A stretch of 64,000 nt of DNA from an uncultured Rivularia sp. (GCA_963665115.1 OY762007.1:6080001-6144000), one strand, 5' to 3'; counted from the stretch's first letter, positions 43,440 through 63,351 are shown. Notes: generated by a model not told the origin, from the sequence alone. Numbers and translations: made by a program.

Positions 43440-43589
43440 TATCAAATACAGTCAATTGCCTGCATACTATAAGAATAATATATTAAAATCTTGGTAAATC
43501 CAATATTGCAGCCTTTTTTAAATACTAACGTTCTTCAATCATATGTTTCCCATCGCGCCATTTATCAGTCTCTTAGACAGGAATTTGGC

Positions 43590-45046: not shown

Positions 45047-45816
45047 TAAATTGTTTCAATGCCTCACGCTTTGCCACTTCGAGCCTTGCCTGTTCTTCCG
45101 GTGATACTTCTCCAACAACAGTTTTTAGTTCCGAATGCTGTTTTTGTTTAACTTGTTGTGTAAGTGCTTCTATAGGAACTGAATCTTCAGTTTTATAGCT
45201 AGGTTTAAACCCACGACGACGATATAAAAAACGAAAGTGCCGTTTGTCTTGTGGTGGTAATTCTTCCCATACTTCGGCATCCCATCCAGGCGGTATGTAG
45301 TTTGCTTTTGAAGCTGGTAGTAAATTTTGTATTTGGGATTGGAGCAATTGTATTTCTTCTCCTTGTTTCTCAATTATTTGATTCTGCTGCTTAAGTTTTT
45401 CAAGGATATTTGAAAGCAGTTTCTTGGTTTTGCAATCCGAGTTCTGCCTCACGAGTAAGGAGCGCAAAATAGGTTTGTGCTTCTGCTATTTCTGGCTTAC
45501 GTGGGTCGCCATTCATTGCAGTAATATAACAAGCATATCGAGATAGCTTATAATTTTTCAGCACTTCTCTAAATGCCTGAGAGTCCCCTATTCGCGCCAT
45601 TTGGACGACGTTGGTAAAATGGTCAGATACGTTTGCCCCGGAATTGCGAGCGCTAACTTTTGCTCTTTCTACAGTATCTTTAATTCTCTTCCAAGTTCTA
45701 TATCCCATCGACGCTAATAAATCTGTCGCCAACCAGTATTCGGTTCCTAATTCATCAATTTGTTTGATTTTGTCAAATGGACTGGTATCGCTTTTACTTA
45801 AATTAATCGAATCCAT
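45024..45816 (-). CDS. Bro-N/DinD-like antirepressor-type protein; joined across a +1 frameshift at about 45420
   Basis: EYWLATDLLASMGYRTW, YKLSRYACYITAMNGDPRKPEIAEAQTYFA (DinD/Bro signature); removing one A gives QELLSNILEKLKQQ. Confidence 0.8.
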
Positions 45817-46034
45817 AATTCCTCCGTTGCAAATGCATGAGAAAATAGAGCGACGCTGCTACTACAACTCGCCACTGAGTAAAATTAATTTCTTTCATCG
45901 CCAAGATTGAGAACTATCAAGTATTAAGCAGCTACAGAGATGCAACTGTTTAATACTTAATAGAAGAAAATTACTTGTTATCCCAAATAGTAACACATAG
46001 TTATCACAATAGATATTGAAGAATAAAAAGCAGT

Positions 46035-46060
46035 AAACCCGCCTAATGTTTAGCGGGTTT
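46035..46060. terminator. Hairpin terminator downstream of the RHH gene
   Basis: AAACCCGC-ctaatgttta-GCGGGTTT. Confidence 0.55.
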
Positions 46061-46119
46061 ATCTTTAAGCATCTGCTTTAACTGTTCAAGCAATTGCCTG
46101 AGAGAATTATTTTCTTCTC

Positions 46120-46332
46120 TCAGGCGGCGGTTTCCCCCAGCAATACCTCTTCAAGTTTTTCAACTCGTTGTCTTAATTCTAAAATATCGCCACTTTCAGC
46201 ACTTACTCCAAGATACTGATCGATTAAATCTATAAGAACATCAGTGGCATTTTTACCTTCTGCCTTCACTTTATGGTAGAAAGCATCTTTTTTATCAGGT
46301 GAAATTCTAATATTTAGCCTTGACTCAGCCAT
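46120..46332 (-). CDS. Ribbon-helix-helix regulator with coiled-coil tail
   Basis: SRLNIRISPDKKDAFYHKVKAEGKNATDVLIDLIDQYL...LRQRVEKLEEVLLGETAA. Confidence 0.8.
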   Translation of the reverse strand: MAESRLNIRISPDKKDAFYHKVKAEGKNATDVLIDLIDQYLGVSAESGDILELRQRVEKLEEVLLGETAA

Positions 46333-46565
46333 AATAATTCCCTTTGCTAATTATTCTAGAGTTATTTCAAATTAGCAATTAAGCCACGGGATAACAAGTG
46401 TACATACGAATTACAGCTATTTGTTATCCCTCCGTGTTGACAAATGGGATAACAAACATTATTTTAGATAATAAGACAAATACAGCCATGCGTTCGCCTG
46501 TCCTGAGAAAACTAGTACGAACACATGGAGGTAAGCCAAACTCCTATAAAGTCAGGCATCTAATT

Positions 46566-47252
46566 ATGACGTATCTATGTACCAAGCAGCAAGCGCTTCA
46601 TAGTGATAAAAACCAACTAACTATTTCCACAGGCTCAAATGCAATCCCCCAAAGTGATATCACAACAGTAGAAATAAGTTTCTACGACCATGAAATTTAC
46701 GCTGGTGAAAAACTAATTGCTTGTATTGCTCATGACCATGATGATTTTGCGACTCAACGCTGGGTGGTGATGATAAATAGTGTTGAAGTCCACCGAGCAA
46801 ATACTTGGGCAAAATGCTACGACTACATCATATGGCATTACAAGCAAGGAACATTGCCTACACAACAGCAAGAAGAAATAGCTGCAACTTGTAATGAAGA
46901 AACAGCAGAAGTTACCCCAATATCCAAGTTTGAGTTTGACTTATGCAATGATGTTGCCAAACAGAACTTGGTGAAGCTCGACGAAATTGCTTGTAAATCC
47001 TGTAACCATTGGGTAGTGAGAGTCTACGCTCAAAACCAGTTAACACTAAGCTTTGATGGAATATGTCTAAAAGTTGAGTCTTTATGGTTAATAGAAATTT
47101 CTCCACTAGAAAGTAATCAAAGCACAAGTATAAGTGAGAGTTGTGAGGAATTATTAGATCAACCCTTCGATGAATTGATTAGCGAAGAATGGGAAAGATT
47201 AAAAAAGTACAAACCGATTGCTAAAAAGATTCAGACAGCAGCCTTGTACTAA
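46566..47252 (+). CDS. Hypothetical protein (start moved downstream of the promoter)
   Basis: Long ORF; the track start at 46398 lies inside the operator/promoter region, so ATG 46566 (or 46488) is more plausible. Confidence 0.6.
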   Translation: MTYLCTKQQALHSDKNQLTISTGSNAIPQSDITTVEISFYDHEIYAGEKLIACIAHDHDDFATQRWVVMINSVEVHRANTWAKCYDYIIWHYKQGTLPTQQQEEIAATCNEETAEVTPISKFEFDLCNDVAKQNLVKLDEIACKSCNHWVVRVYAQNQLTLSFDGICLKVESLWLIEISPLESNQSTSISESCEELLDQPFDELISEEWERLKKYKPIAKKIQTAALY

Positions 47253-47348
47253 AACCTATAGAACTAACAGTCATGCTTTTCTGCGGATTCTATAGAACGA
47301 ATTTCCATTCCATGAAATTAACAATCAACATATCGAAGGTTAATCAAA

Positions 47349-48393
47349 ATGTTCAAGAAAGCCACAAAATCCAACTTGAAAATAAGGCTTGCCTTAAGCG
47401 GAGCATCCGGTTCTGGCAAAACATACTCAGCACTTTCAATCGCTTCTAACCTTGGTAATCGCATTGCTCTGATTGACACCGAAAGAGGTAGTGCTTCTAA
47501 ATACGCTGATTTATTCAATTTTGACACCTGTGAACTTACGAACCATCACCCAGCGAAATACATAGAAGCAATTCGCCAAGCAGAGGATATGGGGTATGAC
47601 ATCATAATTATCGATTCGTTAACTCATGCATGGTTCAGTGAACTAGAGTTAGCAGGTGGTAGATTTGATGGATGGGCAAAAGTCCGCCCTTTGGAGCGTA
47701 AATTAATCGATGCGATGATTGGATCAAAATGCCATATAATTGCGACGATGCGAAGCAAAACTGAATGGCTGATTGAAGAAAATCAAAAGAAGGGTAAATC
47801 CTCTTATAGTCCCAAGAAAATAGGCACATCACCAATACAGGCAAGCGGAGTAGAATACGAGTTTGATGTCGCCGGAGAGCTTGATTATACGCACATTTTA
47901 ACCATTAGTAAGAGCCGTTGCCCTGCTGTTACGGATAAAACTTTTCTCAATCCTGGTAAGGAATTGGCGTTTGAATTAAAGTCCTGGTTAGCAACAGAAG
48001 AATCACAACCACAAACTATAGAATCTCCTCAAAAATTAGAATCAGCTTGGGTTGCAGATACTCAAGATTTGCGAGTCAAGCAAATTCGTACCTTGCTTGA
48101 TTATCCCATTGAATTAATTAAAGAATGGCTGCAATCCAATATTGTTCAGCGTCCCCAGTCAACTTGATAGTCACAAAGTTGATGAATTAGTAAAAACGAT
48201 GTGTCTTGCTTGGGCTTCCCCTCTGTCTGCTCATCCTAAGTACACTGCTGATTCCTACGATAAGAACGTAGTCAGAGCAGTGATTGAAGGTTATTCGGAA
48301 TTGGAGGCAATTCAAAATTGGATGAAGCAGGTTCAGCAATTTAAGAAGCAAGAGCAGAAGCAAGAAGCTGGAATTTTTTCATCCTTTAGTTGA
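47349..48393 (+). CDS. Phage-type P-loop ATPase (AAA_24 / Sak4-like); joined across a +1 frameshift at about 48153
   Basis: Walker A GASGSGKT, LIDTERGS, Walker B IIIIDSL, HIIATMRSK, EYEFD; removing one C gives RPSQLDSHKVDELVK. Confidence 0.8.
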
Positions 48394-48505
48394 AAACCTG
48401 AAAAATAAGTAAATATTGCTAGACTCTTCCTTCAAAACTTACTTTATGCGAATGCAACATTGATTGTTGCATTCGTAACATTGATTTGTATTTTTTCTAA
48501 TCGCG

Positions 48506-49108
48506 TTGCAAATGTATCCAAATCAAATTATTCAGTTATTGCAATCAACACCTTTGGAAGCAAGACAGTTTCTCCGCTACAGTTTTGGCATAGATAAGTT
48601 ATCTCCCGAAGAGATTTTAGAAGAAGAATTAAATTTTAGCTATGGCACTAAATGCATTAATTTACTTTCAAAACTTTTAGGATTTAGAAAACAAACTATA
48701 CGAAGTTGGGGCGATAATCCTAACTTTTGGAATATGCCAAAACATTCACAAATTGCTTGTAGTTACGCGCAAATAGCTTTATCTCAACAAGAATTAAAGA
48801 GAGTGAGTAATGAAAAATATATTGCCCCAAGAACAACAGCACTGGAATTTATCGAAGAAACTCTTTTAAATGCTTCGTCACCATCACAAAGAATAAAGAT
48901 ATTAACCTCTACTAACTTTCGAGGAAGTTGTCTTAAATTGTTATCGGAAACTTTAGCTATATCAGAGCGGACAGTTTATGAATGGGGACGGGATATTGAG
49001 TTCAGTAATATGTCTAAATATCATCAACATACCCTTGCTTATGCGCTTGCTGCATATTGCAAAAGACAAAAATTCAATTTGAATAATAATTTTGTTTTGT
49101 ATTCTTAG
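48506..49108 (+). CDS. Hypothetical protein with two internal HTH-like repeats
   Basis: CINLLSKLLGFRKQTIRSWG..F.NM.K.....SYA versus CLKLLSETLAISERTVYEWG..F.NM.K.....AYA. Confidence 0.7.
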   Translation: MQMYPNQIIQLLQSTPLEARQFLRYSFGIDKLSPEEILEEELNFSYGTKCINLLSKLLGFRKQTIRSWGDNPNFWNMPKHSQIACSYAQIALSQQELKRVSNEKYIAPRTTALEFIEETLLNASSPSQRIKILTSTNFRGSCLKLLSETLAISERTVYEWGRDIEFSNMSKYHQHTLAYALAAYCKRQKFNLNNNFVLYS

Positions 49109-49619: not shown

Positions 49620-50024
49620 ATGATGGTATGTGATGACAATGTTATATATACCCAGAAAAGCCTTGCCCAAAGATATGGAATAACTATCTCAGCTTTGCAA
49701 CAGTGGTATCCCTATGCCGGGATAGTAAAACCCAAGAAGCGAGGAGGATACTTTGATTTAGATGCTGTTCAAACTGCCGACTTTTTTTACGTAGCCACTA
49801 AGATAAGACGATTAACCAGAGACGAATATCTAGAAAGAGTAATTCCTTCTGGTGGTTTAGATGAATTTATGCGTCAAAATAACGGACTAAGCCTGTACGA
49901 TTTTTTGACGAAACATATTTCTGAAGATGAAAAACAAGACCCAATTGTTAAATCTGTTATTAGGAGGATTGAGAGATATGAAACACATCAACAAAGTAGC
50001 TCAAACTTTGCAAACTACACCTGA
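49620..50024 (+). CDS. MerR/excisionase-like HTH protein, first gene of the putative transfer operon
   Basis: YTQKSLAQRYGITISALQQWYPYAGIVKPKKRGGYF. Confidence 0.6.
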   Translation: MMVCDDNVIYTQKSLAQRYGITISALQQWYPYAGIVKPKKRGGYFDLDAVQTADFFYVATKIRRLTRDEYLERVIPSGGLDEFMRQNNGLSLYDFLTKHISEDEKQDPIVKSVIRRIERYETHQQSSSNFANYT

Positions 50025-50568
50025 AATAGTAATTAAGGTATGTAAAAAACTAAGCTTAGTTGTAAATAAAGATAGTACTATCAAGCCGGAAGTAGAGCGA
50101 CAATTAGTTCAATTAAAAGAAGTAGCTGCTGCTGAAAATATGTCATTAGAAGAAGCCGCTAACCATTTATTGGAAATGCGCCAAGAACGCTCCAGTTCTA
50201 ATAACGAACACACATTTGATGAAAACCAATATATCCAACAAAGATTTGGCGTAAATCCCGAAGAATCTGAATCTAATAGCTTCGTTAAAGTGTTGCATTC
50301 GGATGTTAAAAGAGGAAAGCAACTGGCAACATTACGACATAAAGTAGTTCTCGAAACTTCTACTTTGATGTTAGAAGATATGTTATTTAACGGTGTCCAA
50401 TAACCAACAACAGAATTAGAAGAAGTACAAGGTCGAGTTTACAAGCGTATCGACGATGATTTTTTCGGCAAAGTCAATTGGGGAGAGGAGCCGCATCCGT
50501 CGTTGGAAATGCAGCCTCAACAATTGAAATCAGTGTCGAAGACAAAATCCTTGCCCGAGAAGTCATAA
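49978..50568 (+). pseudogene. Hypothetical protein with an in-frame premature stop (TAA 50401-50403)
   Basis: MKHINKVAQTL...; the same frame stays open after the TAA (PTTELEEVQGRVYKRIDDDFFG...EKS*) up to the next gene. Confidence 0.55.
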
Positions 50569-50828
50569 CCTTGATGATGCCGTCAATAGAATCTTACCTT
50601 GGCGAGCAATCCCGACAACTTAGGATTGTAGCGATGCAGGGTATGGGAATTGTATTTTTGGGTAGCTTTTCGGGGATGGTAACGGGATTGGTCTTATCTC
50701 CTCCACAGCAGACGAACATACCAAAGGTAATTTACGGTTCTTTATTTGGTGGCTTAGTTGGAATTTCTGTTGCACTTACTTTGATTTTGAAGATAACCAG
50801 GGAGTTTAGTATTCATGAGAGCGATTAA
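50478..50828 (+). CDS. Small two-TM membrane protein
   Basis: Two Gly-rich hydrophobic helices; overlaps the next start. Confidence 0.65.
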   Translation: MGRGAASVVGNAASTIEISVEDKILAREVITLMMPSIESYLGEQSRQLRIVAMQGMGIVFLGSFSGMVTGLVLSPPQQTNIPKVIYGSLFGGLVGISVALTLILKITREFSIHESD

Positions 50829-51042
50829 AGATTTTTTCATTAATATCGGTGGTGGAATATTGACCGGATGCGGTATTAGCGGATTTATCGGTCACGCAAT
50901 GGGAGTCGGTGCAGCCCTTGCAATTAATCCTTTGCTATTGCTCATGGGCGCGGTTTTTGGCGGCGCATGGGTGTGTATACTGCGTTCGACTTTTGTAAGT
51001 TATTCAAGGGAACCTTTGTACGTGATAGTTGATAACAGTTAA
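50815..51042 (+). CDS. Small Gly-rich two-TM membrane protein
   Basis: GGGILTGCGISGFIGHAMGVGAAL...LLLMGAVFGGAW. Confidence 0.65.
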   Translation: MRAIKDFFINIGGGILTGCGISGFIGHAMGVGAALAINPLLLLMGAVFGGAWVCILRSTFVSYSREPLYVIVDNS

Positions 51043-51047
51043 TAGCC

Positions 51048-51884
51048 ATGCAGTTACTTCCTAAAAGGGATAAATTTAATTCGAGTAATACGAGTGCGAA
51101 TGATATACCCAAACTCAAAAAGCGCAGTCGAAAAATCGACATAGTGTTGTGGGTTTGTTGTGCAACGGTTGGATTGGGTTCGGTGTTGGCAGCCGCTGCA
51201 ATTATCATAGGTAGACGAGGTGAAGTACCATCCACTGTTTCTGCTATTACTCGCGCTAAAGAAATAACAGATTCCCGACGGCGTATTTATATCGAGAAGT
51301 TGACTCGCACCGACTTCAATCCCGACGAGTTACAAAACTTCAGTGTTGATGGAAGTGTTACTCTAACGGGTTGGCGGCAACTAGCTGCGGCACAATGGTC
51401 GGGAGAAATAGTGCAAAATATTAACAACCAGCAGAGTAATGAAAATTCACCCTTCTTTAGGCTGCATCATATAGCAGCATTAGCGATCACAAAACTTGAT
51501 ACGATGGATGCTTTGATTGAAGTAGCAGCCGGAAACAATAGTTTTACCTACAGCTATATCAAGACAGATGGTACTAAAGTTGAGCAAAAGTTAAGTACGG
51601 GTGGTGCTGCGGTATTGCTTTTAGGTAAGTTAGAGGCTATTGACTATGCCGAGAATTTACAGAATCGTCCGATAGTGGATTTGAATCAAATGGTAACGCA
51701 AATCCAGACGGTACAAGAGCCATACGCTCTATCCCAAGCGAACTATTTGCGGGTTCAGGGCTATAAAGACCCCGTGCGGCAGTTATCAGAAGTACCAATA
51801 ATACGTCAGAGTATAGCTGAATCATTGCGTAAGAGAAAGCTGAAACTAGAGCAGTTGAAAAAATCCAAACAAGGAGTTGATTAA
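51048..51884 (+). CDS. Single-TM membrane-anchored protein
   Basis: Basic N-terminus, hydrophobic IVLWVCCATVGLGSVLAAAAIII, then a soluble domain. Confidence 0.75.
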   Translation: MQLLPKRDKFNSSNTSANDIPKLKKRSRKIDIVLWVCCATVGLGSVLAAAAIIIGRRGEVPSTVSAITRAKEITDSRRRIYIEKLTRTDFNPDELQNFSVDGSVTLTGWRQLAAAQWSGEIVQNINNQQSNENSPFFRLHHIAALAITKLDTMDALIEVAAGNNSFTYSYIKTDGTKVEQKLSTGGAAVLLLGKLEAIDYAENLQNRPIVDLNQMVTQIQTVQEPYALSQANYLRVQGYKDPVRQLSEVPIIRQSIAESLRKRKLKLEQLKKSKQGVD

Positions 51885-54526
51885 TGTGTATGTCAAATTT
51901 ATTGGCGCGGGTGTATGCTTTTTGCTCTCATTATTTAACGTATTGGGAGCGGTGCGGCAGATTCCGGTGAAGACTACTAATGGTAATTCTTCGCGTCCTA
52001 CTGTCACTCAGATGAAACCTCCGGGAACTAGCTTGCATTGGTTGTCGGGTGGAGTCTTTTTTGCAGCAAGTATCAGTTTAATTGCCTGGGCTATTTGGGA
52101 ATATAACTCCAATATCGACCTCGGTGTTGATTCCACTGAGGCTCCTGCACCTGTTGTGCCACCGATGCCCGACACCGATACCCAAATGCCCCAATTTTTA
52201 GATGAAGGTGCAATCCAATCACAGCAATTTGAGGGTGTTAAACCCGAATTTCAAAACTTAGTTCCGTTTCGTCGCCCTACTGCCGATGGTAGCGTGCCGA
52301 TAACCCCCGAACAATTCAAAAATGCGTGCGACTTGTTAGAACTAGGAGCCAAGCGGTCGGCAGATTACCGACGCAAGCCGGGGTATGAGTTCTGGAGTAT
52401 GCGGGGTAAAATCCTCAAAATACTTTAACTGTTTCAAAGATGTGGGTGAAAGTCCCACCCGTCCGGGATGACGTGACTCCCTATCTGACCACACCGAGCG
52501 GCAACGACCGTAACCGTAGAGTGAAGCTGGTGACAGGGCACAATCAGAAGTAAAGCAGGTAACTACACTGGTGCTAATGGGGATGAAATATGGGTAAACA
52601 GGTTCTAGAAAAGTGTCTTATGAATAAGCCATAACCTGGTCAACAAATATGGACTTCAACATCGTTTATTCCCGCAATCTTATTGCATTTGAGAATTGCA
52701 ATCCTGGGAAGATGTTAGGCAAAATGAACCGCCCTAAGTTTCATAAAAGCTTTCAAATGAAGGTATCTTTGTTACGGAACAAGAAAAAACACTATACAGG
52801 TCTAGGGAAAGGTCGAACCCCTGGTAAGCTAGGTTGAACTTAATTCCTGATAGTGGGTAGGATGTTAGCGGAAACTGCTAACGGGTATTCAGAAAATATT
52901 CAAAGGAAGAGAGCATGGTTAGACATACCCCCCTGGGAAATGAACTTTGGAAAGGGTTACCTTGGAAGAAATTTCGTAAAAACCTATTCCGCCTACAACG
53001 GAGAATATTTAAAGCTGTTAGAGAAGGTGACATGGCGAAAGTCCGAAATCTTCAGAAGCTAATCTTGAAATCCACGTCAGCAAAGCTGTTAGCAATTAGA
53101 CAAATAACGCAATTAAATAAAGGCAAGAGAACTGCCGGAGTGGATGGGAGAAAAACACTGAATTTCATCCAAAGGTTCCAAACACTTTTTCAATTAGGAA
53201 ACATAAATAAATGGATACCACAGGAATTAAGGAGGATTCCTATACGGAAAAAGAATGGAAAAGTTAGAATTTTAAGTGTTCCAACTATAACCGATAGAAT
53301 CTGGCAATGCTTAATAAAATTCGCCTTGGAACCCGCCCACGAAGCAACCTTTCATGCCAATAGTTATGGGTTCAGAACAGGTAGAAGCGCCCACGATGCC
53401 CAGAAGATGGTCTTCCAAAGATTAAATTCGAGAGTCAAGGGATATGATAAGAGAATAATTGAACTCGATATCAAAAAATGCTTCGACCGCACAAGTCATG
53501 AAACAATCATGACTCAACTAATTGCCACATCCGGAATAAAACAGGGAATATTCAGATCACTTAAAGCCGGAACATTCCCGGAATTCCCTGAGCAAGGATG
53601 CCCGCAAGGAGGAGTTTTTAGCCCATTACTTGCTAACATTGCTTTAAACGGTACACAATAGCATACGATATGCGGATGACATGGTGTTGTTTCTTAAGCC
53701 AAATGAGGACGCAGGAAAAATACTTCAAAAAGTTAAGACATTCTTGGCCCAAAGAGGTATGCAAATTAGTGAAGAAAAGACAAAGATAAGGCCATCGACA
53801 ACAGGATTCAACTTTCTAGGTTGGAACTTTAAAGTCCAGAAAAACGGTAAGTTTAGAAGCACTCCATCGAAGGAGAACTTTGAAGCTATGCGTGAGAAAG
53901 TAAAATTCATAGTCAACAACTCTAATTATGGGGCTGAAGTAAAAGCACAAAAGCTGGCACCTATTATACGAGGATGGAGAAACTACCACCGCTTCTGCAA
54001 CATGAATAACGTGAGAGATTCCTTATGGTTCATAGCCAAAAGAACTTTTCGAGTATTCAACAAGCAGAAAAAGCTTAACCGATATCAAGCCGAATCGCTA
54101 GTAAAGAAAGCTTTCCCATCGGTTAAATGGGCAGAAAGTAAATTTGTCAATGTAAAAGGTGAGAAATCGCCTTACGACGGAGACATAGTTTATTGGAGTC
54201 AACGGGAATCCAAACTGTATGACGGAATTTCAGCCAAGCTTCTCAAGAAGCAAAACCATACATGTGCTAGATGTGGGATGAAGTTTCTCCCAGGAGAAGA
54301 TGTTCACCTACATCACATAGATGGAAACCACGATAACTGGAAACCAAAGAACTTAGAAATGGTTCACCAGTCGTGTCACCAGTATACGCACATGAGCAAA
54401 GCGAAAGCTCAGAATATCTAGGAGCCGGATGCGGCTAAAGTCGCACGTCCGGATCTGAAGGAGAGGTGCGGAGCGTAATAGCTCTCATCGACTCTAACTT
54501 TAGAAGACGATGTTTGGTCTGATTAA
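51877..54526 (+). CDS. Two-TM, Pro-rich membrane protein split by group II intron 1; exons 51877-52325 and 54499-54526
   Basis: Splicing gives ...PEQFKNA|LEDDVWSD* (158 aa), followed by RBS AGAGG and the next ATG at 54538. Confidence 0.85.
52326..54498 (+). mobile_element. Group II intron 1 (IIB, chloroplast-like class)
   Basis: 5' GTGCGACTTGTT; domain V GAGCCGGATGCGGCTAAAGTCGCACGTCCGGATC; domain VI ending CTCTAAC; EBS1 GCATTT (52685-90) pairs with IBS1 AAATGC; EBS2 TGAAT (52621-25) pairs with ATTCA. Confidence 0.95.
52915..54421 (+). pseudogene. Intron-encoded RT/maturase/HNH protein, frameshifted just before YADD
   Basis: Relative to intron 2 (NGIEDIHSSVRYADD), about 11 nt are missing near 53651; PQGG, RYADD and HNH motifs remain in two frames. 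Confidence 0.9.
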
Positions 54527-54537
54527 AGAGGTAAATT

Positions 54538-55035
54538 ATGGCAAATAATAGACGTAGAGATTTTGGTGTTGACTATTCTCAACCCGGTCAATTAGCGACA
54601 CAACAACAATTAGCGCAAATGTTACATAACGCTCAACAACAGCAATATCCGACTCAACAACCAACTACTATTAACGTCGAGCCGACTTCAATACACCGCG
54701 AACAAGGTATTAGCGTACATCACGTAAATTCTCAGAATAAACCGGCGGTTAATCGAGTGCCAGAGATTTATGTCCCCGTAACAGATTATTGGAAAGCTCA
54801 TAGATTCCATCCTCACAACAATTTACGTTACTTTTGGTATATCTTCTATTGGCTCAAAGATGCGATTTCATCCCCCGTAGGTATTGCCATTGTGATGTTG
54901 TGGTTGGGCATTGGTGGAATTAATTTCTTGCTAAATGGTAATTATTCTGGTCCTGGTTACGTACAGAATAAAGAAATTAAACTAACACCGGAAAATGTAC
55001 CTAATTTAACTCCGGTTGTCGATTTGGTGGATTGA
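54538..55035 (+). CDS. Gln-rich membrane protein
   Basis: RBS, Q-rich N-terminus, TM IAIVMLWLGIGGINFLL. Confidence 0.7.
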   Translation: MANNRRRDFGVDYSQPGQLATQQQLAQMLHNAQQQQYPTQQPTTINVEPTSIHREQGISVHHVNSQNKPAVNRVPEIYVPVTDYWKAHRFHPHNNLRYFWYIFYWLKDAISSPVGIAIVMLWLGIGGINFLLNGNYSGPGYVQNKEIKLTPENVPNLTPVVDLVD

Positions 55036-55286
55036 TGTTTGTCCGCATAACCTTTTGGTTGGTGCTATGTTTGTTCGTAGCAGATATAGCCCAACCTGGA
55101 TACTTAAAGTTTTGGCAACCTAAGATTACCTTGACCAATATCGATATCAGGTTGCCAAGACTAAATAATAAAGAAACTAGTCCAACAGTATCCCCTCCGC
55201 AACCTTCTTCTTGCCCCCTGCCTGATAATGACTTAGAAGTAGTTATTCGAGCTAGATTTGGCTGCCACAATGCGACTTCTAATTGA
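55032..55286 (+). CDS. Small exported protein
   Basis: Hydrophobic N-terminus, Pro-rich linker, Cys pair; start overlaps the upstream stop. Confidence 0.6.
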   Translation: MMFVRITFWLVLCLFVADIAQPGYLKFWQPKITLTNIDIRLPRLNNKETSPTVSPPQPSSCPLPDNDLEVVIRARFGCHNATSN

Positions 55287-55884
55287 TTTTAGTACTACCG
55301 AAACGAATAAAAGAGATGCATCAATAGTAAAACCAATTTCTCCTAATTGGAAATATGGTTTTTCTACGTTGGTTCTATGTACGGCGATCGCACTTCCTCA
55401 ATTTTCTGGATGGGTTGAGTCCCAACTCCCAATTCGATTACTCCAACGACTCGCAAAAACTACGAACAACGTGACCAAATCACAAAGTACAGCTTTTCCC
55501 ACAATAAAAGGTTCACCTATGACCAGTGGTTTTGGTTGGAGAATTCATCCCCTTACTGGAAAACGTCAATTTCATTCTGGTCTTGATTTTGGTGCTTCCA
55601 AAGGTTCTCCAATTTATGCTTTTGAAGCAGGTAAGGTCGAGTTTGCTGGCTCCAAAGGTGGTTATGGTAAAGCTGTTATTATCAATCACGGTGCCCGAAA
55701 GTCAACCCTTTACGGTCATGCGAAGGCGCTTTCTGTAAGAAAAGGAGAAAGAGTTGCAACAGGACAAATGATTGGGGAGGTCGGAAGTACGGGATTTTCC
55801 ACCGGACCGCATTTACATTTTGAGGTGAGGCTAAATAATAAGCCAGTAAACCCGCGTCCCTATCTACAGCAACGCGGGAGATAA
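55258..55884 (+). CDS. M23-family peptidoglycan endopeptidase, membrane anchored
   Basis: TSGFGWRIHP, HSGLD (HxxxD), GGYG, LYGH, STGPHLHFE (HxH). Confidence 0.95.
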   Translation: MAATMRLLIDFSTTETNKRDASIVKPISPNWKYGFSTLVLCTAIALPQFSGWVESQLPIRLLQRLAKTTNNVTKSQSTAFPTIKGSPMTSGFGWRIHPLTGKRQFHSGLDFGASKGSPIYAFEAGKVEFAGSKGGYGKAVIINHGARKSTLYGHAKALSVRKGERVATGQMIGEVGSTGFSTGPHLHFEVRLNNKPVNPRPYLQQRGR

Positions 55885-55887
55885 AAA

Positions 55888-56598
55888 ATGATTCGCCCCT
55901 ATCACCTCACAATCTTGTCTTTACTAATTCTATCTTCCCCTTTATTTGGATTATCAATCAATCAAGGTTTCAGCTACATAGATAGGAATAATGCTGAAAA
56001 ACTGTTTGCTAATATTGAAAGTCCCGGTAATCTTGCTATCTGCCGCGCTGAAGGAAATTGTGACAAAAATGGTCAATTTACCTCATTATATTATGGTCAC
56101 ATTGACCCATCAAAAATAGGAGGTAAGCGAGTATTAAATCAAGGATTTTGTAGCGACTACGGTAAAAGTAAAGCGGGTGATATTGATGGTGCAAATCGCG
56201 GCTGTTTGCGTCGAATAAAATCTCGTTTACCGCGATTAACTAAATTATTTCAACAGCATAATATTGATGTAAATGAACATACTGCTGCCTATATTAATGC
56301 CGTAGATTTATGGAATCAAGCTGCACCTAAAGTTAGCGATAATTTTCCTCAAATTTATGCAAATAATATATCTTTTGGATTATCTATTGATGATGCTATT
56401 CGTCGCTCCCGAATTGATGCATTCAATTTAAGCGCGTCCGGCTTGTTTAATATTTGTAGCAGAGAACCATATTACATCTCAAGACTTGCTGCTTATCGTC
56501 AAAATTCAACACAATGGAAGCGTGGATGCATTGACATTGACCAAAACCGCAGACGATTGGCAATCAATGAAATATTAACTCATCGGGGAGTAATTTAG
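55888..56598 (+). CDS. Secreted Cys-rich protein, possibly lysozyme-like
   Basis: Signal peptide; AICRAEG...YYGHIDP...NQGFCS resembles muramidase-like catalytic Glu regions; next to the M23 gene. Confidence 0.5.
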   Translation: MIRPYHLTILSLLILSSPLFGLSINQGFSYIDRNNAEKLFANIESPGNLAICRAEGNCDKNGQFTSLYYGHIDPSKIGGKRVLNQGFCSDYGKSKAGDIDGANRGCLRRIKSRLPRLTKLFQQHNIDVNEHTAAYINAVDLWNQAAPKVSDNFPQIYANNISFGLSIDDAIRRSRIDAFNLSASGLFNICSREPYYISRLAAYRQNSTQWKRGCIDIDQNRRRLAINEILTHRGVI

Positions 56599-56600
56599 TA

Positions 56601-57983
56601 ATGGAACTCGATAATTTTATATATAAAGCTATTGTTCATGCTCGTGATGGGGGAATGGGTAAAGATGAAATATTAGAAACAACTAAAGAAAATTTACCTG
56701 ATAGTTTACACGACAATGCGATTGCTATTGTTAATAATTTAGATTTTGATGTTAAGCAATGAGAGCCTTATTTTTCCCATTTGTCGGAATTATTCAACTA
56801 TATCTTTTATTTAGTAAATCAAAATAAGAAGGATGAAGCAATATTAAATCAATTATCAAATAGCTGCAACTTGGAGCAATTCGAGTTTGTTAAATACGCA
56901 CTGCGTTATATCAATATCAATCGCATTCCTTCTGCATGGGAACTAGATAACGTACATAGCGAACTAGTCGAGCTTGATGTTGATGAACTAATAAAAAGAT
57001 GCGAAACTCTTAAAAACTTTGCATATAAGGAAGTTGCATATCGGATAATACTGCAACATCTTTACACGGCATTTTGTGAGAATAAACCGATTAAGTGGTT
57101 CATTGATATTGCCCGCTCAACTACTGATGAAACGATTATAAAATATTGCGATCGCGCAGCTGTAATGATATCTAAAGCTCAAGGTGTGGAGCCAATTAAC
57201 GCATTGGAATCAGCGAAAACAGATATTGAACAAACAAGCATATCAACAACTGAGTCCGGAAAGCTGATTATAGATACCCTAGCTGAATTTAAGATAGCAG
57301 CAGAATATATTGACGCACAATGCGGTCCCACATTTAACCGCATCAAAATCAAACTTGGTAAAGGAGTTTCATTTAAGAAAATCCAAGATTTTGGTAACGA
57401 CTTTGTGCAGCAGCTCGGAGACACTTTAAATATGGATACTGCACCAATGGTGTCCGTTGTTCCTGGTGGTGCTGCTATTGATGTCCCTCGCAGCGATAGA
57501 GAAATTGTTTATTTCAAAAATTATGCTGATTTTTCATTACCTATAGATATACATAATGTTGTGATTCCCGGTGGTGTTGGTGTTGATGGAAAATACGTGG
57601 ATATTCCCCTCTCAGATGAAAACGTGACTCATATCCTTGGTGGTGGAAGAACTCGTGGGGGTAAGTCGCAATTTGAGAAAGCAGCAATACTTTATCTGGC
57701 GCGTCGTTATCCCCCGTCAGTAGTCAAGCTAGCTTTATCCGATGTTAAACGAGTGACTTTTAGCAAATTTTCTAAGTTACCCCATCTAATTGCACCCGTA
57801 GCAAAGGATGCAGCTTCGAGTGCAGAATTATTTAGTTTGTTAGTACAGCAAATGGAAGCCCGGTATCGGGAGTTTGAGAAAGTCGGTTGTGAGACGATAG
57901 CCGAATTTAACCGCAAGCATTACCCCGAATTGATTATGCCTCGGATAGCAAGTTTTACAGACGAATGTACCACACAAAGATGA
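56601..57983 (+). pseudogene. FtsK/SpoIIIE-family DNA translocase with an in-frame stop and C-terminal truncation
   Basis: ATG 56601 in frame, TGA at 56760; alpha domain GPTFNRIKIKLGKGV...IDVPR; HILGGGRTRGGKS (Walker A), LSDVKRV, QMEARY; ends four codons after Walker B ..DEC. Confidence 0.85.
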
Positions 57984-58326
57984 AATATGCTGTAAAGCAT
58001 TATGCTAATACTACAAATTGGGGAATCATATCCAGCTATGGTCACAAAAAAACTAATAGATGGGTAGGAGAAGGGGAAGGAGTAGAACTCGCTTCTATAT
58101 GCTTTAAGGAAAATAGAATTAATTTTAAACAATGAATAGGCAATTCTGGTGATAAGAGCAAGTTCGATTCTTACTATTGCTATTGGAAGTTTTTATATGC
58201 CGAATTCGAACTAATTGCTATTTAAAATCTTGCATTTTTAGTAGATAGTAGGTTTAACAAAAAGCTTTCAATATCCTGCGTTGTGCGGGGCTAAGTAATT
58301 AGTTTAAACACAATGTATGGAGGTTT

Positions 58327-61300
58327 ATGATGTTACGAAGAAGATTATCGAAGTTAACAAGTGTTCTATCAGATGTTAACTGTGTAATTGGGGGGTTATC
58401 TTTTCTTGCTGTATTTACTGGTTCGTTAGCTGCCATAATTGGTGTTGGAGGATATTCTTTAGAAAAGCTTGGCGTTCTTAAAGAAGAAGATACTTGGGAA
58501 CAAGCTTGGGCTTTTGCTATTGTTTCTTCCACTGTCGGTTTAGCAGGTACTAGCGTTGCAGCTACAACGGGAGCATTTTTAAGTCGCCGGAACATACAAG
58601 CAGAAGATAATAAATGTACAGAAGCATCTAATAATCTTGATTCATCTACAAGCTTCAAGTTAGGTGCGGCTCGTTCTAACTAAGAGCTTCTAGAAACTAG
58701 AAGGGTAAGAGTTAGGTAGATTCGCGGGGAACACCCCAAAATCTATAATCGTTTCAAAGATGTGAGTGAAAAACTCACCCGTCAGGGATGACGTGACTCC
58801 CTATCTGCCCACACCGAGTAGTGACAACCATCCTACAGAGTGAAGCTGGGAACAGGGCGCAATCAGTTGTAAAACAAGCAGGTAACAACACTGGCGCTAA
58901 TGGGGGGAGAATATGAGTAAAAAGATTCTAGAAAAGTGTCTCAGAAGCAAGCCATAACCTGAATAAAAGAATATGGACTTCAGTATCGTAACTCCCGCAT
59001 CATTATCTAACTGATAGATGCAATTCCCTGGGAAGATACTAGGCAAAGTGAATCGCTCTAAGTTCTCATAATATCTTTGTTACGGAACGAGTAAAAACGC
59101 TGTCTAAGGTCTGAAGCGTAGTCGAAACTTCAGTAAGCCAGGTTGGGACGAATCCCTTACAGCGGGTAGGATGACAGCGGAAACTGCTGTCGGGTATTCG
59201 GAAAATATTCAATGGAGCAGAGCATGATTAGACACAGTGGCAACGCTAGTGAATCTTGGAAAAAGTTACCTTGGAAGAAATTCCGTAAGAACTTATTCCG
59301 CCTACAAAAGAGAATATTCAAAGCTATTAGAGTTGGCAACATAGCTCAAGCCAAGTCACTTCAAAAGCTAGTTCTGAAATCGACATCGGCTAAGTTGTTA
59401 GCAATCCGGCAGGTTACGCAACTAAATAAAGGACGTAAAACTGCGGGTATTGACGGTAAGAAGTCCTTAAACTTCAAAGAAAGATTTGAACTTTATAGAC
59501 TACTTTCACAGGTTAACAATTGGAAACACCAAGGACTAAGGGAAGTACCGATTCCCAAAAAGAACGGAAAAACCAGAATACTTAAGGTACCAACAATTCA
59601 AGATCGAGCATGGCAATGTTTAATTAAATACGCTCTAGAACCTGCCCATGAAGCTACTTTCCACGCGAGAAGCTACGGCTTCAGAACAGGACGCTCGGCT
59701 CATGACGCACAAAAGATTATTTTTCTCAATCTTAAATCTGACCGAGATGGGAAGAATAAAAAAGTAATCGAATTAGACATCAAAAAATGCTTTGATCGAA
59801 TTAGCCACAAGTCAATAATGGACGAGGTGATAATACCCAAAGGAGCAAAACTAGGAATATTCCGCTGCCTTAAAGCCGGAATAAACCCAGAATTTCCCGA
59901 ACAAGGAACTCCCCAAGGTGGAATCGTGAGTCCACTGCTAGCAAATATAGCATTAAACGGAATTGAGGATATACACTCCAGCGTTCGCTATGCCGACGAC
60001 ATGATTATATTCTTAAAACCGGGTGAAGATGAAGTAACAATACTAGAAAAAATATCTCAGTTCCTTAAAGAACGAGATATGGAACTAAGCCAAGAAAAAA
60101 CTAAAGTAACAGCTACGACAGATGGATTTGACTTTCTGGGCTGGAGATTTTCAGTACAGAAAAACGGAAAATTTAGAAGCACTCCCTCAGAGGATAACTT
60201 CAAAGCTTTCCGCGACAAAGTTAAATTCATAGTTAATAACTCTAATTATGGGGCTGAAACAAAGGTCACGAAACTAGCTCCCATCGTAAGAGGCTGGCGT
60301 AATTATCACAAATACTGTGACATGAATAACACCAGACACTCACTGTGGTTCATTAGCTACAGAACATTTAAAGTCTTTTTGAAACAAAAGAAAATTAGCA
60401 GATACAAGGCACAAGCACTAGTCAAGAAAGCTTTTCCTGCTGTTAAATTCACCCAGAATAAATTCGTCAACGTCAAAGGAACAAAATCCCCATACGACGG
60501 TGATGTGACTTACTGGAGTCAAAGAGAATCTAAACTTTATGACGGGAAATCAGCCAAGCTTCTCAAGAAGCAAAACCATACTTGTACTCATTGCGGTATG
60601 AAGTTCTTACCAGGTGAAGATATTCAACTCCACCATAAGGATGGAAACCACGATAACTGGAAAGACAACAATCTCGAAGTCATCCACCAATCGTGCCACC
60701 AATATAAGCACATGAGCAAAGAGCCTCAAATTATTGAATTGCAGAATAAAACCTGGTTTTTCAAGAAAGAGGACTCAAAGGATATCTAGGAGCCGAGTGC
60801 CGGGAAACTGGCACGCTCGGTTCTGAAGGAGAGGTGCCCCGGATAATACCGGGCATCGACTCTAACCAATGACTCGCGATATGTTTGTGATGTGTCGCGA
60901 TAATGATAAGGAGGAAGAAAATAAACCATTAGTTTACACATATTATTTTGTGGAAATCAAAGGTAATCCATCGATTAGCGGATTGATGGTATCAAGAATG
61001 CAATCAAATTCAATCGCTGTATGCGACTGCATTTCTCTAGAAGATGAAGAAAGACTAATGCTAATCCATGAAAATCCTGGGGAAAGTCCCAGGTTAATTG
61101 GAAAAACCTTTTCTAGCTATCAACCATTACCGACAGAAGCGTTACGCGAACACTTGGATATTTACAATCCATACCTATATGCACTTCAAAGCAAAGACTT
61201 TGAACCATGCAATTTAGAATCTTGCAAAGGCTGTCAGCATTTGCACGGCAAGGATAGGATAGTTTGTGGGATATATGCTTATGGATGGAATGGTATTGAC

Positions 61301-61816
61301 TGCCCAGATAAGGTTTGGGATAAAAGAAGTGCAATTCGTAGGTTTGAAGACGAAGCTGCTATCGCATCCTTGTCCGAAGGACTCAATGAATGGAAAATCT
61401 TTAAATATGACTATTTAATTAGTCTCTTTCATCCAAAAACATACCGCCAATTTAGCTTTGATTTTGATGGTAAGCTTCTTTCTTATTCCAAAACGCTAGA
61501 TGGGCTTGAAGAAGGCAATATTGTTGATTACGTCTACTTCTTACGTCGCTCTCGACAATTTCAGTATGATTATTCACATGCTGATTTTATCGAACAAGCA
61601 AGTTTCTTTCTTGACGAAGTAGATGCAATAATTAGTGTGGATGACTTTAAGATATTTGTAAAAGAGAAAGACTCAAATGTTGTCCATACTTTTTTACATA
61701 ATGGCGAACCATTTTTTGCCCTGAACCCTGCTTGTCCTCCAAAGCTTAAAGACAACTACAATTTATCTACGTTAATTGACTATTTATATAATGACGTGGA
61801 TGAATTGGATTCTTAG
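58327..61816 (+). CDS. 428-aa two-TM protein with a Cys4 motif, split by group II intron 2; exons 58327-58663 and 60867-61816
   Basis: Splicing joins TTA G|CA ATG, giving ...SFKLAMTRDMF... in frame; CKGCQHLHG...VCG..YGW...CPD motif. Confidence 0.88.
58664..60866 (+). mobile_element. Group II intron 2 (IIB, chloroplast-like class), apparently intact
   Basis: 5' GTGCGGCTCGTT; domain V GAGCCGAGTGCCGGGAAACTGGCACGCTCGGTTC; domain VI ending CTCTAAC; EBS1 CTAACT (59007-12) pairs with IBS1 AGTTAG; EBS2 GAAGC (58944-48) pairs with GCTTC. Confidence 0.95.
59212..60789 (+). CDS. Group II intron reverse transcriptase/maturase with HNH endonuclease (likely start 59224)
   Basis: TAGIDG, SYGFR.GRS, ELDIKKCFD, TPQGG, RYADD, FDFLG, domain X, CxxC...HHKDGNHDN...HQSCH. 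Confidence 0.95.
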   Translation: MEQSMIRHSGNASESWKKLPWKKFRKNLFRLQKRIFKAIRVGNIAQAKSLQKLVLKSTSAKLLAIRQVTQLNKGRKTAGIDGKKSLNFKERFELYRLLSQVNNWKHQGLREVPIPKKNGKTRILKVPTIQDRAWQCLIKYALEPAHEATFHARSYGFRTGRSAHDAQKIIFLNLKSDRDGKNKKVIELDIKKCFDRISHKSIMDEVIIPKGAKLGIFRCLKAGINPEFPEQGTPQGGIVSPLLANIALNGIEDIHSSVRYADDMIIFLKPGEDEVTILEKISQFLKERDMELSQEKTKVTATTDGFDFLGWRFSVQKNGKFRSTPSEDNFKAFRDKVKFIVNNSNYGAETKVTKLAPIVRGWRNYHKYCDMNNTRHSLWFISYRTFKVFLKQKKISRYKAQALVKKAFPAVKFTQNKFVNVKGTKSPYDGDVTYWSQRESKLYDGKSAKLLKKQNHTCTHCGMKFLPGEDIQLHHKDGNHDNWKDNNLEVIHQSCHQYKHMSKEPQIIELQNKTWFFKKEDSKDI

Positions 61817-61969: not shown

Positions 61970-62389
61970 ATGTTTACAACCCAATTTGTTACAACTCCCG
62001 AAATTGTTTGTACTATCAACGATTTATTGTTTCCCCTCTTCTTGTTTTGTTTGATATTTGGGTTTTTATGCTATTTAACTTACGATTATGAACAACATCA
62101 TAAATCCTCCGAAATTGATAGCAAGTCCGATTGCGTTGAAGTGACTAAAATGCAATCTGAATCGAAAATAATTCAAGTAATAAAAGAAGAAGCAATGACA
62201 ATTGTGGAGAAGGATAAGCAAGCTAAGTTGTTAATTGATTTGGGTATCCGAAACCTACGCTTGTTTTGTAAGCAACAGCAAATTAAAGGTTATTCCACTG
62301 CTTATAAAAGAGGAAAGATGAAAGGTTTAGCTGAGTTTTTGCTTAGTCAAGGATACTTTTATTCGGATATTGCAATTGCGTTGAAATAA
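61970..62389 (+). CDS. Membrane-anchored protein with a C-terminal Rho-N/SAP-like helical motif
   Basis: TM LFPLFLFCLIFGFLCYL; LGIRNLRLFCKQQQIKGYS. Confidence 0.6.
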   Translation: MFTTQFVTTPEIVCTINDLLFPLFLFCLIFGFLCYLTYDYEQHHKSSEIDSKSDCVEVTKMQSESKIIQVIKEEAMTIVEKDKQAKLLIDLGIRNLRLFCKQQQIKGYSTAYKRGKMKGLAEFLLSQGYFYSDIAIALK

Positions 62390-62714: not shown

Positions 62715-63351
62715 CTAAGATGCTGTAATAATTCTTCCTAAATATTTGAGTATTTTTAAAACTTCGTTCAAATTATTTCGATACTGTGACCCTAGTTGAA
62801 AATAAATCAGAAACACCATACTGTTTACCTAAAGCTTTGACAAACAAATGACTGCTACCATTCGTTATCATTCCGTACAGGGGCTGTTCTGGTTTTGGAT
62901 GAGCCGCCATATAAGCTAGTGTCTGAGGAATTGCTAACTCCAAATCAAAGGTTGTCTTCTTTGATTCAATTAGTACAATCCACAATTTACCCTGTAAAAC
63001 TAAAGCATCAATACGTCCTCGTAAAATTTCTTCGTTATCTCCTAATGCTTCAATTTCCACAGATACTTCGGTTTTAAATCTGTAAGGTGACTGATAGAAA
63101 CCTGCAAGTTCTAGTAGCGGTGAAAGCACCACCATTTTAATAGTTTCTTCTAAAAGGCTTCCATCCGAAATTTGATAAAGATAATTTTGTCGAACTTGTT
63201 CTAATCTTATTTCTTCTGCTTCACTTAATTGAGGTAAATCTGCCATCCATTCATTAAAAAACTGGCTTTCATCGCTAAGTTTTAAACCCAGTTTCTCTTC
63301 AACTTGACGAAGAGTAGTAATTTTTTCTGCAATAGCTATATTAGTTGTCAT
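62715..63351 (-). CDS. HsdR N-terminal-like PD-(D/E)xK nuclease domain protein; C-terminus restored across a +1 frameshift at about 62790
   Basis: LSPLLELAGF, GRIDALV, IESK, QTLAY, ITNG; removing one G gives TRSQYRNNLNEVLKILKYLG...S*. Confidence 0.8.

Follow-up and report, generated by a model that had tools for sequence, protein, structure and literature searches.

A conserved operon with an FtsK-like motor on tRNA-Phe islands and megaplasmids of heterocyst-forming cyanobacteria, and its decayed copy in Rivularia

In the sporulation septum of Bacillus, SpoIIIE, a membrane-anchored and chromosomally encoded pump of the FtsK family, moves double-stranded DNA between sister cells together with SpoIIQ and SpoIIIA, i.e. 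next to an M23/LytM-fold protein, SpoIIQ, which is catalytically degenerate. Conjugation in cyanobacteria has, to our knowledge, hardly been studied at all. Here we analyse a stretch of 64,000 nucleotides from an uncultured Rivularia sp. (GCA_963665115.1, OY762007.1:6080001-6144000; this whole stretch is 'the window' in what follows), which contains, from position 49620 onwards, an operon that combines an FtsK-like gene with genes for an M23 peptidase and small membrane proteins. In having an FtsK-family motor beside small membrane proteins on a mobile element of a filamentous host, this operon recalls the TraB/Spd systems of Streptomyces and the integrative and conjugative elements of actinomycetes (AICEs) pSAM2, SLP1 and pMEA300, as these are described in the relevant passages of the literature (PMC3548315, PMC2440964). 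An earlier note, made from the sequence of the window alone, had indeed read positions 49620..57983 as a candidate for a relaxase-free, AICE-like DNA-transfer operon with an FtsK/TraB-type motor.

Comparative work on such systems places TraB homologues in Actinobacteria only and TcpA in Firmicutes only, and in the same passages describes type IV secretion systems (T4SS) of the MPF_C type as experimentally a blank (Guglielmini et al., PMC3548315). The MPF_C profiles were built from genes at most 20 genes away from VirB4, and MPF_C reportedly has no counterpart of the VirB1 wall hydrolase (PMC4027160); pCC7120alpha is cited as the sole cyanobacterial plasmid with demonstrated transfer (PMC8600333). 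A relative of the window's ATPase that has a place in the literature is All7666: a review lists this protein, encoded on pCC7120beta, as the only FtsK homologue of Anabaena, assigns the chromosomal candidates to the HerA clade, and cites an 'FtsK'–ZipN interaction (PMC7766704); all7666 has been cloned as 'putative FtsK' for two-hybrid tests (PMC9426583), and further papers repeat the assignment. In these sources All7666 figures as a divisome protein, and the passages cited do not mention its operon or mobile-element context. It belongs to the same operon family as the window's gene: the FtsK-like proteins of the Nostoc clade are about 50% identical to that of the window, and the copy in PCC 7120 is intact and plasmid-borne. 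In keeping with the earlier note's supposition that the system is not characterized, no description of the operon was found in the full-text literature, the coverage of which ends short of subscription journals and supplementary files.

Our best reading of the data presented below is that the operon is an envelope module driven by an FtsK-type motor, which conjugative elements of the T4SS type carry as an option. In its full form, this reading takes the window to hold a decayed copy of a conserved accessory operon of T4SS elements, the intact version of which is predicted from its gene content to pump double-stranded DNA across septa—a tentative proposal, to which we give somewhat less than an even chance.

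Operon conservation and decay of the window copy

The operon extends from 49620 to 62389 on the plus strand and consists of 13 tightly packed genes, i.e. genes A to J, the FtsK-like gene, M and N (coordinates are window positions unless prefixed; G000 is the window's genome, L-numbers are homologous loci and G-numbers are genomes). The tightly packed plus-strand arrangement and the start of the operon are as the earlier note had given them, but the end at 57983 was set too early, since M and N, which reach to 62389, are syntenic in relatives. Homologous loci were collected by a scan with an alignment of two E proteins, using one genome per species; this yielded 92 relatives, the best 80 loci of which were analysed. 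Genes were counted per locus by tblastn with the window proteins, and many of the misses are loci that end at contig ends. The features of the window copy are listed here with the number of these 80 loci that have a homologue; transmembrane (TM) segments and signal-like N-termini are predictions from hydropathy.

49620..50024, + strand: gene A, first gene of the operon, 134 aa, N-terminal part resembling a helix–turn–helix (HTH); 71/80 loci
49927..50403, + strand: gene B, soluble, in-frame stop at 50401-50403; 75/80 loci
50478..50828, + strand: gene C, small, two predicted TM segments; tblastn match in 13/80 loci
50815..51042, + strand: gene D, membrane protein, 75 aa
51048..51884, + strand: gene E, bitopic membrane protein, 278 aa; 80/80 loci
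51877..52325, + strand: gene F, exon 1, two TM segments; gene F in 77/80 loci
52326..54498, + strand: group II intron 1, inside gene F; RF00029, 53.3 bits; domains V/VI at 54420-54498
54499..54526, + strand: gene F, exon 2
54538..55035, + strand: gene G, 165 aa, Q-rich N-terminus, C-terminal TM segment; 76/80 loci
55032..55286, + strand: gene H, 84 aa, TM segment or signal anchor at the N-terminus; 61/80 loci
55258..55884, + strand: gene I, M23 metallo-endopeptidase, PF01551 with 1.6e-35; 72/80 loci
55888..56598, + strand: gene J, 236 aa, signal-peptide-like N-terminus; 12/80 loci
56601..57983, + strand: FtsK-like DNA translocase pseudogene, in-frame stop at 56760-56762, ends after Walker B ('TDEC'); 68/80 loci
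57969..57992, + strand: 24-nt scar in place of 689 bp that are present in L008 (14752-15440)
58327..58663, + strand: gene M, exon 1, membrane hairpin; gene M in 48/80 loci
58664..60866, + strand: group II intron 2, inside gene M; RF00029, 59.1 bits; domains V/VI at 60788-60866
60867..61816, + strand: gene M, exon 2
61970..62389, + strand: gene N, 139 aa, TM segment at the N-terminus; 44/80 loci

Nostocales-type cyanobacteria account for all 80 loci (with Rivularia, Calothrix, Nostoc, Scytonema and Tolypothrix among them), several of which are plasmid-borne. Across these loci the gene order A-B-E-F-G-H-M23-FtsK-M-N is conserved, which bears out the core of the earlier note, i.e. a conserved mobile-element operon in which a translocase of the FtsK family is combined with membrane proteins and wall-active ones. 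The small membrane or exported proteins it had described are found as well, with TM segments in C to H, M and N and a signal-like N-terminus in J. Gene E is the operon's most conserved marker, and gene A has a mean column identity of 70% in its alignment (A6). The low count for gene C reflects a protein that is short and divergent and is detected by tblastn in few loci for that reason, whereas J is confined to the Rivularia/Calothrix clade; operons of the Nostoc clade have a different membrane protein of 265–279 aa in the position of J and, behind the FtsK-like gene and ahead of M, two additional genes (L025:15904-16881; L088 16090-17055), one of which encodes 161 aa with a weak AAA_22 match (6.6e-5).

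The match of gene I to PF01551 covers positions 1–96 of 96, with the zinc-ligand motifs HxxxD (residue 106) and HxH (residue 185), and thus the M23 endopeptidase seen by the earlier note stands; the protein also matches MepM/ShyA-like models of NCBIfam, weakly the SpoIIQ model (4.8e-12), and phage endolysin PHROGs. Two other labels of the earlier note could not be recovered: gene A, called 'Xis/MerR-like', has no relative in Pfam, NCBIfam or the PDB, and for J, called 'lysozyme-like', there is none in Pfam or the PDB, with the ESM Atlas giving a weak hint of a VgrG3-like C-terminal domain (0.90, 154 shared features) that is a lead at most. The same holds for HEAT-like matches of gene E (at most 0.85), which were the only ones obtained for it there. 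In RefSeq, E homologues bear the PGAP label 'phage terminase large subunit family protein', e.g. at 7799-8641 in L088 (NC_003240.1) and on other RefSeq plasmids; NCBIfam, Pfam and PHROGs did not reproduce this label, and the name looks like a propagated annotation error.

The FtsK-like motor of the window matches PF01580 (2.5e-17) and FtsK_alpha (PF17854, 5e-8), in agreement with the FtsK/SpoIIIE ATPase of the earlier note, and its intact homologue in L025 matches PF01580 with 2.7e-21. A reading frame of at least 645 aa is present in 55 of the 68 loci with an FtsK match; among the other 13, about five are cut by contig ends and eight are truncated. Intact homologues are soluble proteins of 645–737 aa in which alpha and beta domains are present. 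The family shows no variation in Walker A, Walker B or TQRPD (alignment A5), and it has conserved helical parts on both sides, a region of about 200 aa at the N-terminus and a domain of about 60 aa at the C-terminus; no TM segment, i.e. no counterpart of the N-terminal membrane domain of cellular FtsK, was found by hydropathy. Against PDB sequences, the motor profile scores 163 bits with the FtsK motor, 66 with TcpA (6o1z) and about 49 with EccC/EssC, and positions 221-462 are aligned with 2ius, a structure of FtsK alpha-beta. NCBIfam models give 105–117 bits for FtsK and 56 for EssC (cut-off 778), whereas plasmid_TraB (NF041214) reaches 20 bits (E 1.5e-4) with a curated cut-off of 800, so that the TraB-type motor proposed in the earlier note has to be given up. 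The ATPase also has a single motor domain, whereas proteins of the EssC/EccC type are membrane-anchored with two or three FtsK-like domains. Sequence comparison thus places it closest to true FtsK motors, and not beside TraB, TcpA or EssC. This placement is by scores of hidden Markov models and not by a tree, because the homologue search gave no outgroup: of the 174 matches to the FtsK-like profile, the best 120 all belong to the same tight family.

In the window, this motor is broken. The frames 56601-56762 and 56781-57983 form a single FtsK-like gene divided by an in-frame stop. Further downstream, the loss of 689 bp has removed the 3' third of the gene together with about 60 nt behind it; the breakpoint is identical in comparisons with L013, L016, L017, L018 and L019, and, with 24 nt in place of the lost DNA, the protein stops just past Walker B. 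The stop in B truncates a protein that has 199–209 aa in its homologues (the window frame would otherwise extend to about 50567), and the neighbouring integrase has suffered a deletion of 334 bp at 63903/63904. Genes F and M are interrupted by the two group II introns, which are absent from the earlier note and neither of which is intergenic. Both introns begin with GTGCG (52326, 58664), they are 72% identical at the nucleotide level, and Pfam finds RVT_N, RVT_1, GIIM and HNH domains in the frames they encode. The reverse transcriptase/maturase/HNH frame of intron 1 is broken (52915-53661 and 53681-54421), and the reverse transcriptase/maturase frame of intron 2 is intact (525 aa, 59212-60789). 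The boundaries were set by alignment to intron-less homologues. For gene F, the exon junction is identical to the uninterrupted genes of L008 and L018, with a spliced product of 158 aa that matches up to the stop codon; for gene M, the spliced frame is open and collinear with the single reading frames of 416–432 aa in relatives, and its 428 aa comprise the membrane hairpin followed by a Cys-rich domain with a conserved Cys cluster. Taken together, the stops, the two deletions and the broken intron frame confirm the decay that the earlier note had described. With a motor that has lost everything past Walker B, a truncated B and two genes that need intron splicing, the device in the window cannot work.

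A second syntenic copy of the operon in the same genome (G000:C1, about 1.652–1.660 Mb) is without J and has a frameshifted FtsK-like gene. Elsewhere, the operons of L012, L013 and L016 bear insertions of their own, 1.3–2.9 kb long, in the gaps E/F, M23/J and M/N. Mobile DNA frequently lands in this operon.

Carrier elements and surrounding DNA

The carriers of the operon are tRNA-Phe islands and megaplasmids of heterocyst-forming cyanobacteria. Fourteen plasmids in PLSDB contain gene E, of which 11 are typed as conjugative, two as mobilizable and one as non-mobilizable; pCC7120alpha is not among them. E-bearing plasmids are 186–395 kb in size and operon-bearing islands 130–200 kb. On pCC7120beta of Nostoc (Anabaena) sp. 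PCC 7120, which MOB-suite calls conjugative and MOBP, the operon lies at 167–180 kb with A, B, E, F, G, H, M23, FtsK, M and N in this order, and its ATPase, All7666 (WP_010993994.1, 725 aa), is intact. About 31 kb from the operon on the circle is the T4SS of this plasmid, for which a VirB4-like gene (24982-27810), TrbI/VirB10 and a coupling protein (T4CP) of the VirD4 type (34970-36736) were identified.

Linkage to VirB4 also holds on chromosomes. In G000, G021, G023, G024 and G025, all ten evaluable copies have a VirB4 homologue 64–174 kb away, one further copy (G022) having been set aside as it lies at a contig start, and in eight additional genomes the operon and VirB4 are on one contig, 45–158 kb apart. 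All 23 E-positive genomes of the window's family are VirB4-positive, but VirB4 has a high base rate in the family (125/151) and the genomes are related, so it is the physical linkage and not this count that carries weight. Intact homologues of the operon thus occur together with VirB4, which speaks against the relaxase-free, VirB4-free, AICE-like element of the earlier note. The note had been right that relaxase, VirB4, VirD4, capsid and terminase genes are missing from the window itself (reading frames of at least 70 aa at 39.5–64 kb, together with genome-wide searches for VirB4, T4CP and Mob_Pre): the nearest T4SS genes lie 33–48 kb before the start of the window and are therefore invisible from it. 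These are a broken VirB4 (G000:C1:6032011-6034748) and a T4CP (at 6046499) on the window's own island.

Genome-wide, the VirB4 of pCC7120beta as query finds five VirB4 loci in G000, with PF02534 coupling proteins beside four and Mob_Pre relaxases beside three of them, as against two operon copies. For the window's copy, the nearest VirB4 is the broken one, which is of a more distant type and 97 kb away, whereas the distance to the closest intact VirB4, beside a tRNA-Phe, is 239 kb; between 6.013 and 6.1445 Mb there is no Mob_Pre, and PF03432 has no match anywhere in G000. The second copy has an intact VirB4 98 kb off and a Mob_Pre relaxase 76 kb off. Three of the five VirB4 loci of G000 are without the operon, as are 102 of the 125 VirB4-positive family genomes as judged by gene E. 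Such genomes and loci, together with the operon-free pCC7120alpha, show that the operon is optional, i.e. neither a stand-alone element nor a core part of the T4SS.

The distribution of gene E is narrow. Within the window's family, 23 of 151 genomes have it (18 of 68 genera), and in a phylum-wide sample of 401 genomes it was found in four, all of the same family, with 0/355 outside; the linked VirB4 type is rare outside the family as well (7/355).

The boundaries of chromosomal carriers can be traced by their attachment (att) cores. In five genomes, att core repeats lie 130–200 kb apart with the operon inside the intervals. In G021, two tRNA-Phe att cores 201 kb apart enclose the operon, VirB4 and one integrase of the window's type, on the island G021:C2:3719345-3920289; G023 and G024 share the layout of the window, in which the operon is preceded by VirB4 and followed by a window-type integrase that is an inverted remnant, and L018 and L019 have an intact integrase homologue of 403 aa beside a full tRNA-Phe. 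The window's integrase adjoins a 3' fragment of tRNA-Phe (at about 64455-64500), and there is no att core within the window. The larger region around it, G000:C1:5882103-6144485, is a tRNA-Phe hot spot: a full tRNA and an integrase are located at 5.882 Mb, a direct att core and a second integrase at 6.013 Mb, and an inverted att core at 6.1445 Mb, beside the broken integrase of the window. The inverted orientation of this core relative to the tRNA-Phe suggests an inversion or a fusion of two islands.

Outside the operon, the window contains the following features:

3011-34187, − strand: nonribosomal peptide synthetase/polyketide synthase (NRPS/PKS) cluster
35693-39520, + strand: 1275-aa protein with PPC and RTX-like repeats
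39852-40355: repeat of about 500 bp
40490..49108, no strand assigned: variable upstream module, common to 2–3 of 80 loci, with ribbon–helix–helix/Arc-like regulators and others, including the next four entries
44081-45046, − strand: Rep-O/DnaD-like gene (PHROG, 4.4e-6)
45400-45816, − strand: Bro-N gene
47349-48167, + strand: Sak4-like AAA_24 ATPase
48506-49108, + strand: HTH protein
62773..63351, − strand: HsdR_N-like nuclease-domain protein (PF04313, 6.7e-7), between operon and integrase
63412..64289 (past the window end at 64000), − strand: tyrosine integrase pseudogene, Pfam/PHROG fragments, with the 334-bp deletion

The Rep-like gene and the tyrosine integrase that the earlier note had assigned to the element are thus both there, the latter as fragments, and the HsdR_N-like gene stays beside the integrase in L012, L013, L018 and L019. 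Homology to relatives begins near 40490-40520. Just to the left of this point is the repeat at 39852-40355, which recurs with 80–96% identity at other sites of G000, is present in most relatives within the genus and looks like a small non-autonomous element. The 3' kilobase of the gene at 35693-39520 has many paralogues, which cluster at G000:C1:6.32-6.39 Mb. The NRPS/PKS cluster, with condensation, KS-AT, KR-ACP and two TauD-like dioxygenase domains, fills the first 35 kb of the window and lies inside the tRNA-Phe-associated region. It may be cargo of the conjugative island; clusters of the NRPS/PKS type are reported, in the passage in question, on predicted conjugative plasmids of cyanobacteria (PMC8600333). 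Near the second operon copy (L005/L006, G000:C1:1636001-1676000) there are genes for a XamI-type restriction enzyme, an Eco57I-like methylase and a DnaB-like helicase, a TnpB/Cas12f-like TNB fragment and several Uma2-family nucleases.

Possible functions of the operon

How could an intact operon work? The membrane proteins (C–H, M and N) would anchor the motor, itself soluble, to the septal membrane, the M23 peptidase—joined by J in one clade—would open the septal peptidoglycan, and the conserved C-terminal helical domain of the motor might read a site on the element. The FtsK-type motor would then pump the double-stranded DNA of the element through the septum. Such a device could serve the spread into neighbouring cells of the filament after entry via the T4SS, or it could keep a large element from being trapped or lost at division. 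The more specific proposal of a trans-septal spreading machine, in which the T4SS delivers the element to one cell and the motor and M23 peptidase pass copies on to its neighbours, seems doubtful to us.

Several observations weigh against an envelope module that pumps DNA across septa. The functions of the operon genes are deduced from their sequences, and genes A to H, J, M and N match no family in Pfam, NCBIfam or PHROGs. Profile searches with E, M, A and J against PDB sequences gave nothing below an E-value of 0.29. AlphaFold2 models were too poor to help, with a mean confidence (pLDDT) of 46 for E (12 sequences) and 60 for M (11 sequences), and a VIA-align structure search with the M model returned generic helical hairpins only, over residues 1–99, so that no fold was assigned. 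The motor has no FtsK gamma domain (Pfam, E up to 1, in the C-terminal 143–168 aa), and no clt- or KOPS-like 8-mer occurs consistently at least three times, in 11–12 loci, in the spacer that separates the FtsK-like gene from M or in the DNA upstream of A, although a dispersed or degenerate site would escape this search. The FtsK-like gene is broken in both G000 copies and in 8 of 68 copies elsewhere, and loss of the motor is therefore tolerated. For spreading, the inner membrane of the neighbouring cell would have to be crossed as well, and no part of the operon is known for that. The restriction of the operon to one family might appear to indicate a link to the filamentous lifestyle, but it does not discriminate between explanations, because outside this family the linked VirB4 type is hardly found either.

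Among the alternatives, a module for segregation or dimer resolution would have the element-borne FtsK join the divisome, clear the septum and perhaps activate a recombinase, with the membrane proteins as tethers; large low-copy plasmids and integrative and conjugative elements would bring their own FtsK because their hosts have no chromosomal one. In G000, PF01580 indeed finds the two operon copies, an exonuclease fusion near 744 kb and weak matches, i.e. no canonical FtsK, and a Synechococcus control genome gave no PF01580 match. The gene near 744 kb (L003, G000:C1:744225-746500) was considered as the host FtsK and rejected: it joins a 3'-5' exonuclease and a PD-(D/E)XK nuclease to an FtsK-like part with FtsK alpha domain and motor, the latter interrupted by a TAG, and looks like a defence or repair gene rather than a division protein. 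The large size of the carriers and the review that has All7666 as the only Anabaena FtsK homologue, with its cited ZipN interaction (PMC7766704), also agree with a segregation role. However, an M23 peptidase with active-site motifs and about nine envelope proteins co-conserved with the motor exceed what tethering needs, most T4SS elements of this kind are operon-free, and no Xer-type partner is conserved alongside the operon, so that we hold such a module to be unlikely rather than far-fetched. Less probable again is a part in conjugation proper with the MPF_C T4SS, i.e. in opening the donor wall or handling DNA, in uptake or establishment in the recipient, or in entry exclusion. The element-level linkage to VirB4 in every checkable case fits this idea, as does the reported lack of VirB1 wall hydrolase homologues in MPF_C systems (PMC4027160), but the operon is 31–174 kb away from a compact T4SS locus that has a separate VirD4-type T4CP, most VirB4-positive genomes do without E, and the plasmid cited as the only one shown to transfer (PMC8600333), pCC7120alpha, does not carry the operon.

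A further possibility is an autonomous AICE-like element of about 24 kb, with integrase, Rep, FtsK/TraB and Spd-like proteins, which would move double-stranded DNA alone and merely sit beside T4SS elements at tRNA-Phe. The interval from 40.5 to 64.5 kb does hold the integrase, the Rep-like gene and the operon with no T4SS or relaxase family, L013 shares the entire stretch from rep to int, and tandem elements at tRNA-Phe are found in several genomes. Such autonomy is nevertheless quite improbable, given that the 201-kb island of G021 has no att core (at most two mismatches) and no window-type integrase between operon and VirB4, that the upstream rep module is missing from nearly all other loci, that the operon is far from any integrase on plasmids and in the second island of G025, and that the ATPase falls far short of TraB, with no clt-like repeat array found. 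Protein secretion or antagonism, with the ATPase energizing the export of M23 and J as in type VII systems and the small proteins acting as apparatus or immunity, is very unlikely: two exported, putatively wall-active proteins and the weaker EssC/EccC matches point this way, but a single ATPase domain with FtsK alpha and without TM segment or FHA domain does not, the score for the FtsK motor is threefold higher, and M23 and J carry their own N-terminal hydrophobic or signal segments and so need no dedicated exporter. Finally, it is extremely unlikely that the operon is what remains of a prophage or of a membrane-containing virus, with lysis enzymes and an ATPase of the FtsK type for packaging. 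While Rep-O-like, Sak4-like, Bro-N and Arc-like genes lie upstream, the M23 peptidase matches phage endolysins and E homologues have been labelled terminases, none of 32 scanned reading frames matches a capsid, portal, terminase or tail family in PHROGs or Pfam, the terminase label could not be reproduced with NCBIfam, Pfam or PHROGs, the operon resides on plasmids of 186–395 kb, and the alpha domain known from cellular FtsK is present in the ATPase. With these alternatives considered, an optional envelope module of T4SS-type elements with an FtsK-type motor is the reading that we favour.

Significance and relation to known systems

An operon of 13 genes that is found in 80 loci and in 23 of 151 genomes of one family has been without a described function, and nine of its proteins belong to no known family. 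This has consequences for the literature on cell division. The All7666-type ATPase is missing in 128 of 151 family genomes and broken in both G000 copies, which argues against a core role in the divisome; the Anabaena 'FtsK' is an optional mobile-element gene, and the interaction data obtained with it will have to be read differently. An FtsK module near an MPF_C T4SS is also a concrete candidate for keeping or spreading very large elements in filaments, some of which may carry natural-product clusters, as the NRPS/PKS genes in the window suggest. If the operon does spread DNA across septa, it would be the first analogue of Streptomyces TraB/Spd outside Actinobacteria, built on the only FtsK-family protein of these organisms. 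The interest lies in the intact family and not in the dead copy of the window, and an intact copy, on pCC7120beta, is at hand in a genetically tractable model strain.

With respect to the systems described so far, the cyanobacterial operon resembles several of them in part. Like AICEs, its chromosomal carriers integrate at a tRNA gene, but at 130–395 kb the carriers, which also encode VirB4, T4CP and, as far as plasmid typing and Mob_Pre matches indicate, a relaxase, differ from AICEs. Compared to Streptomyces TraB, the cyanobacterial motor is without a membrane segment, scores far below the TraB cut-off, has no clt-like repeats that could be found, and is encoded together with an M23 peptidase. 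TcpA of the Clostridium perfringens plasmid pCW3 (MPF_FA), which is likewise an ATPase of the FtsK family encoded on a conjugative element, comes second among the solved relatives of the motor, but TcpA replaces VirD4 as coupling protein, whereas the cyanobacterial elements have a VirD4-type T4CP in addition. The carriers share the VirB4/VirB10/T4CP locus type of MPF_C, for which pCC7120alpha is the model, yet the operon stands well apart from this locus and is missing from pCC7120alpha itself. In its pairing of an FtsK-family pump with an M23-fold protein, the operon comes close to SpoIIIE and SpoIIQ; its peptidase, however, keeps the catalytic motifs and matches the SpoIIQ model only weakly, and among the other parts of the two systems there is no homology.

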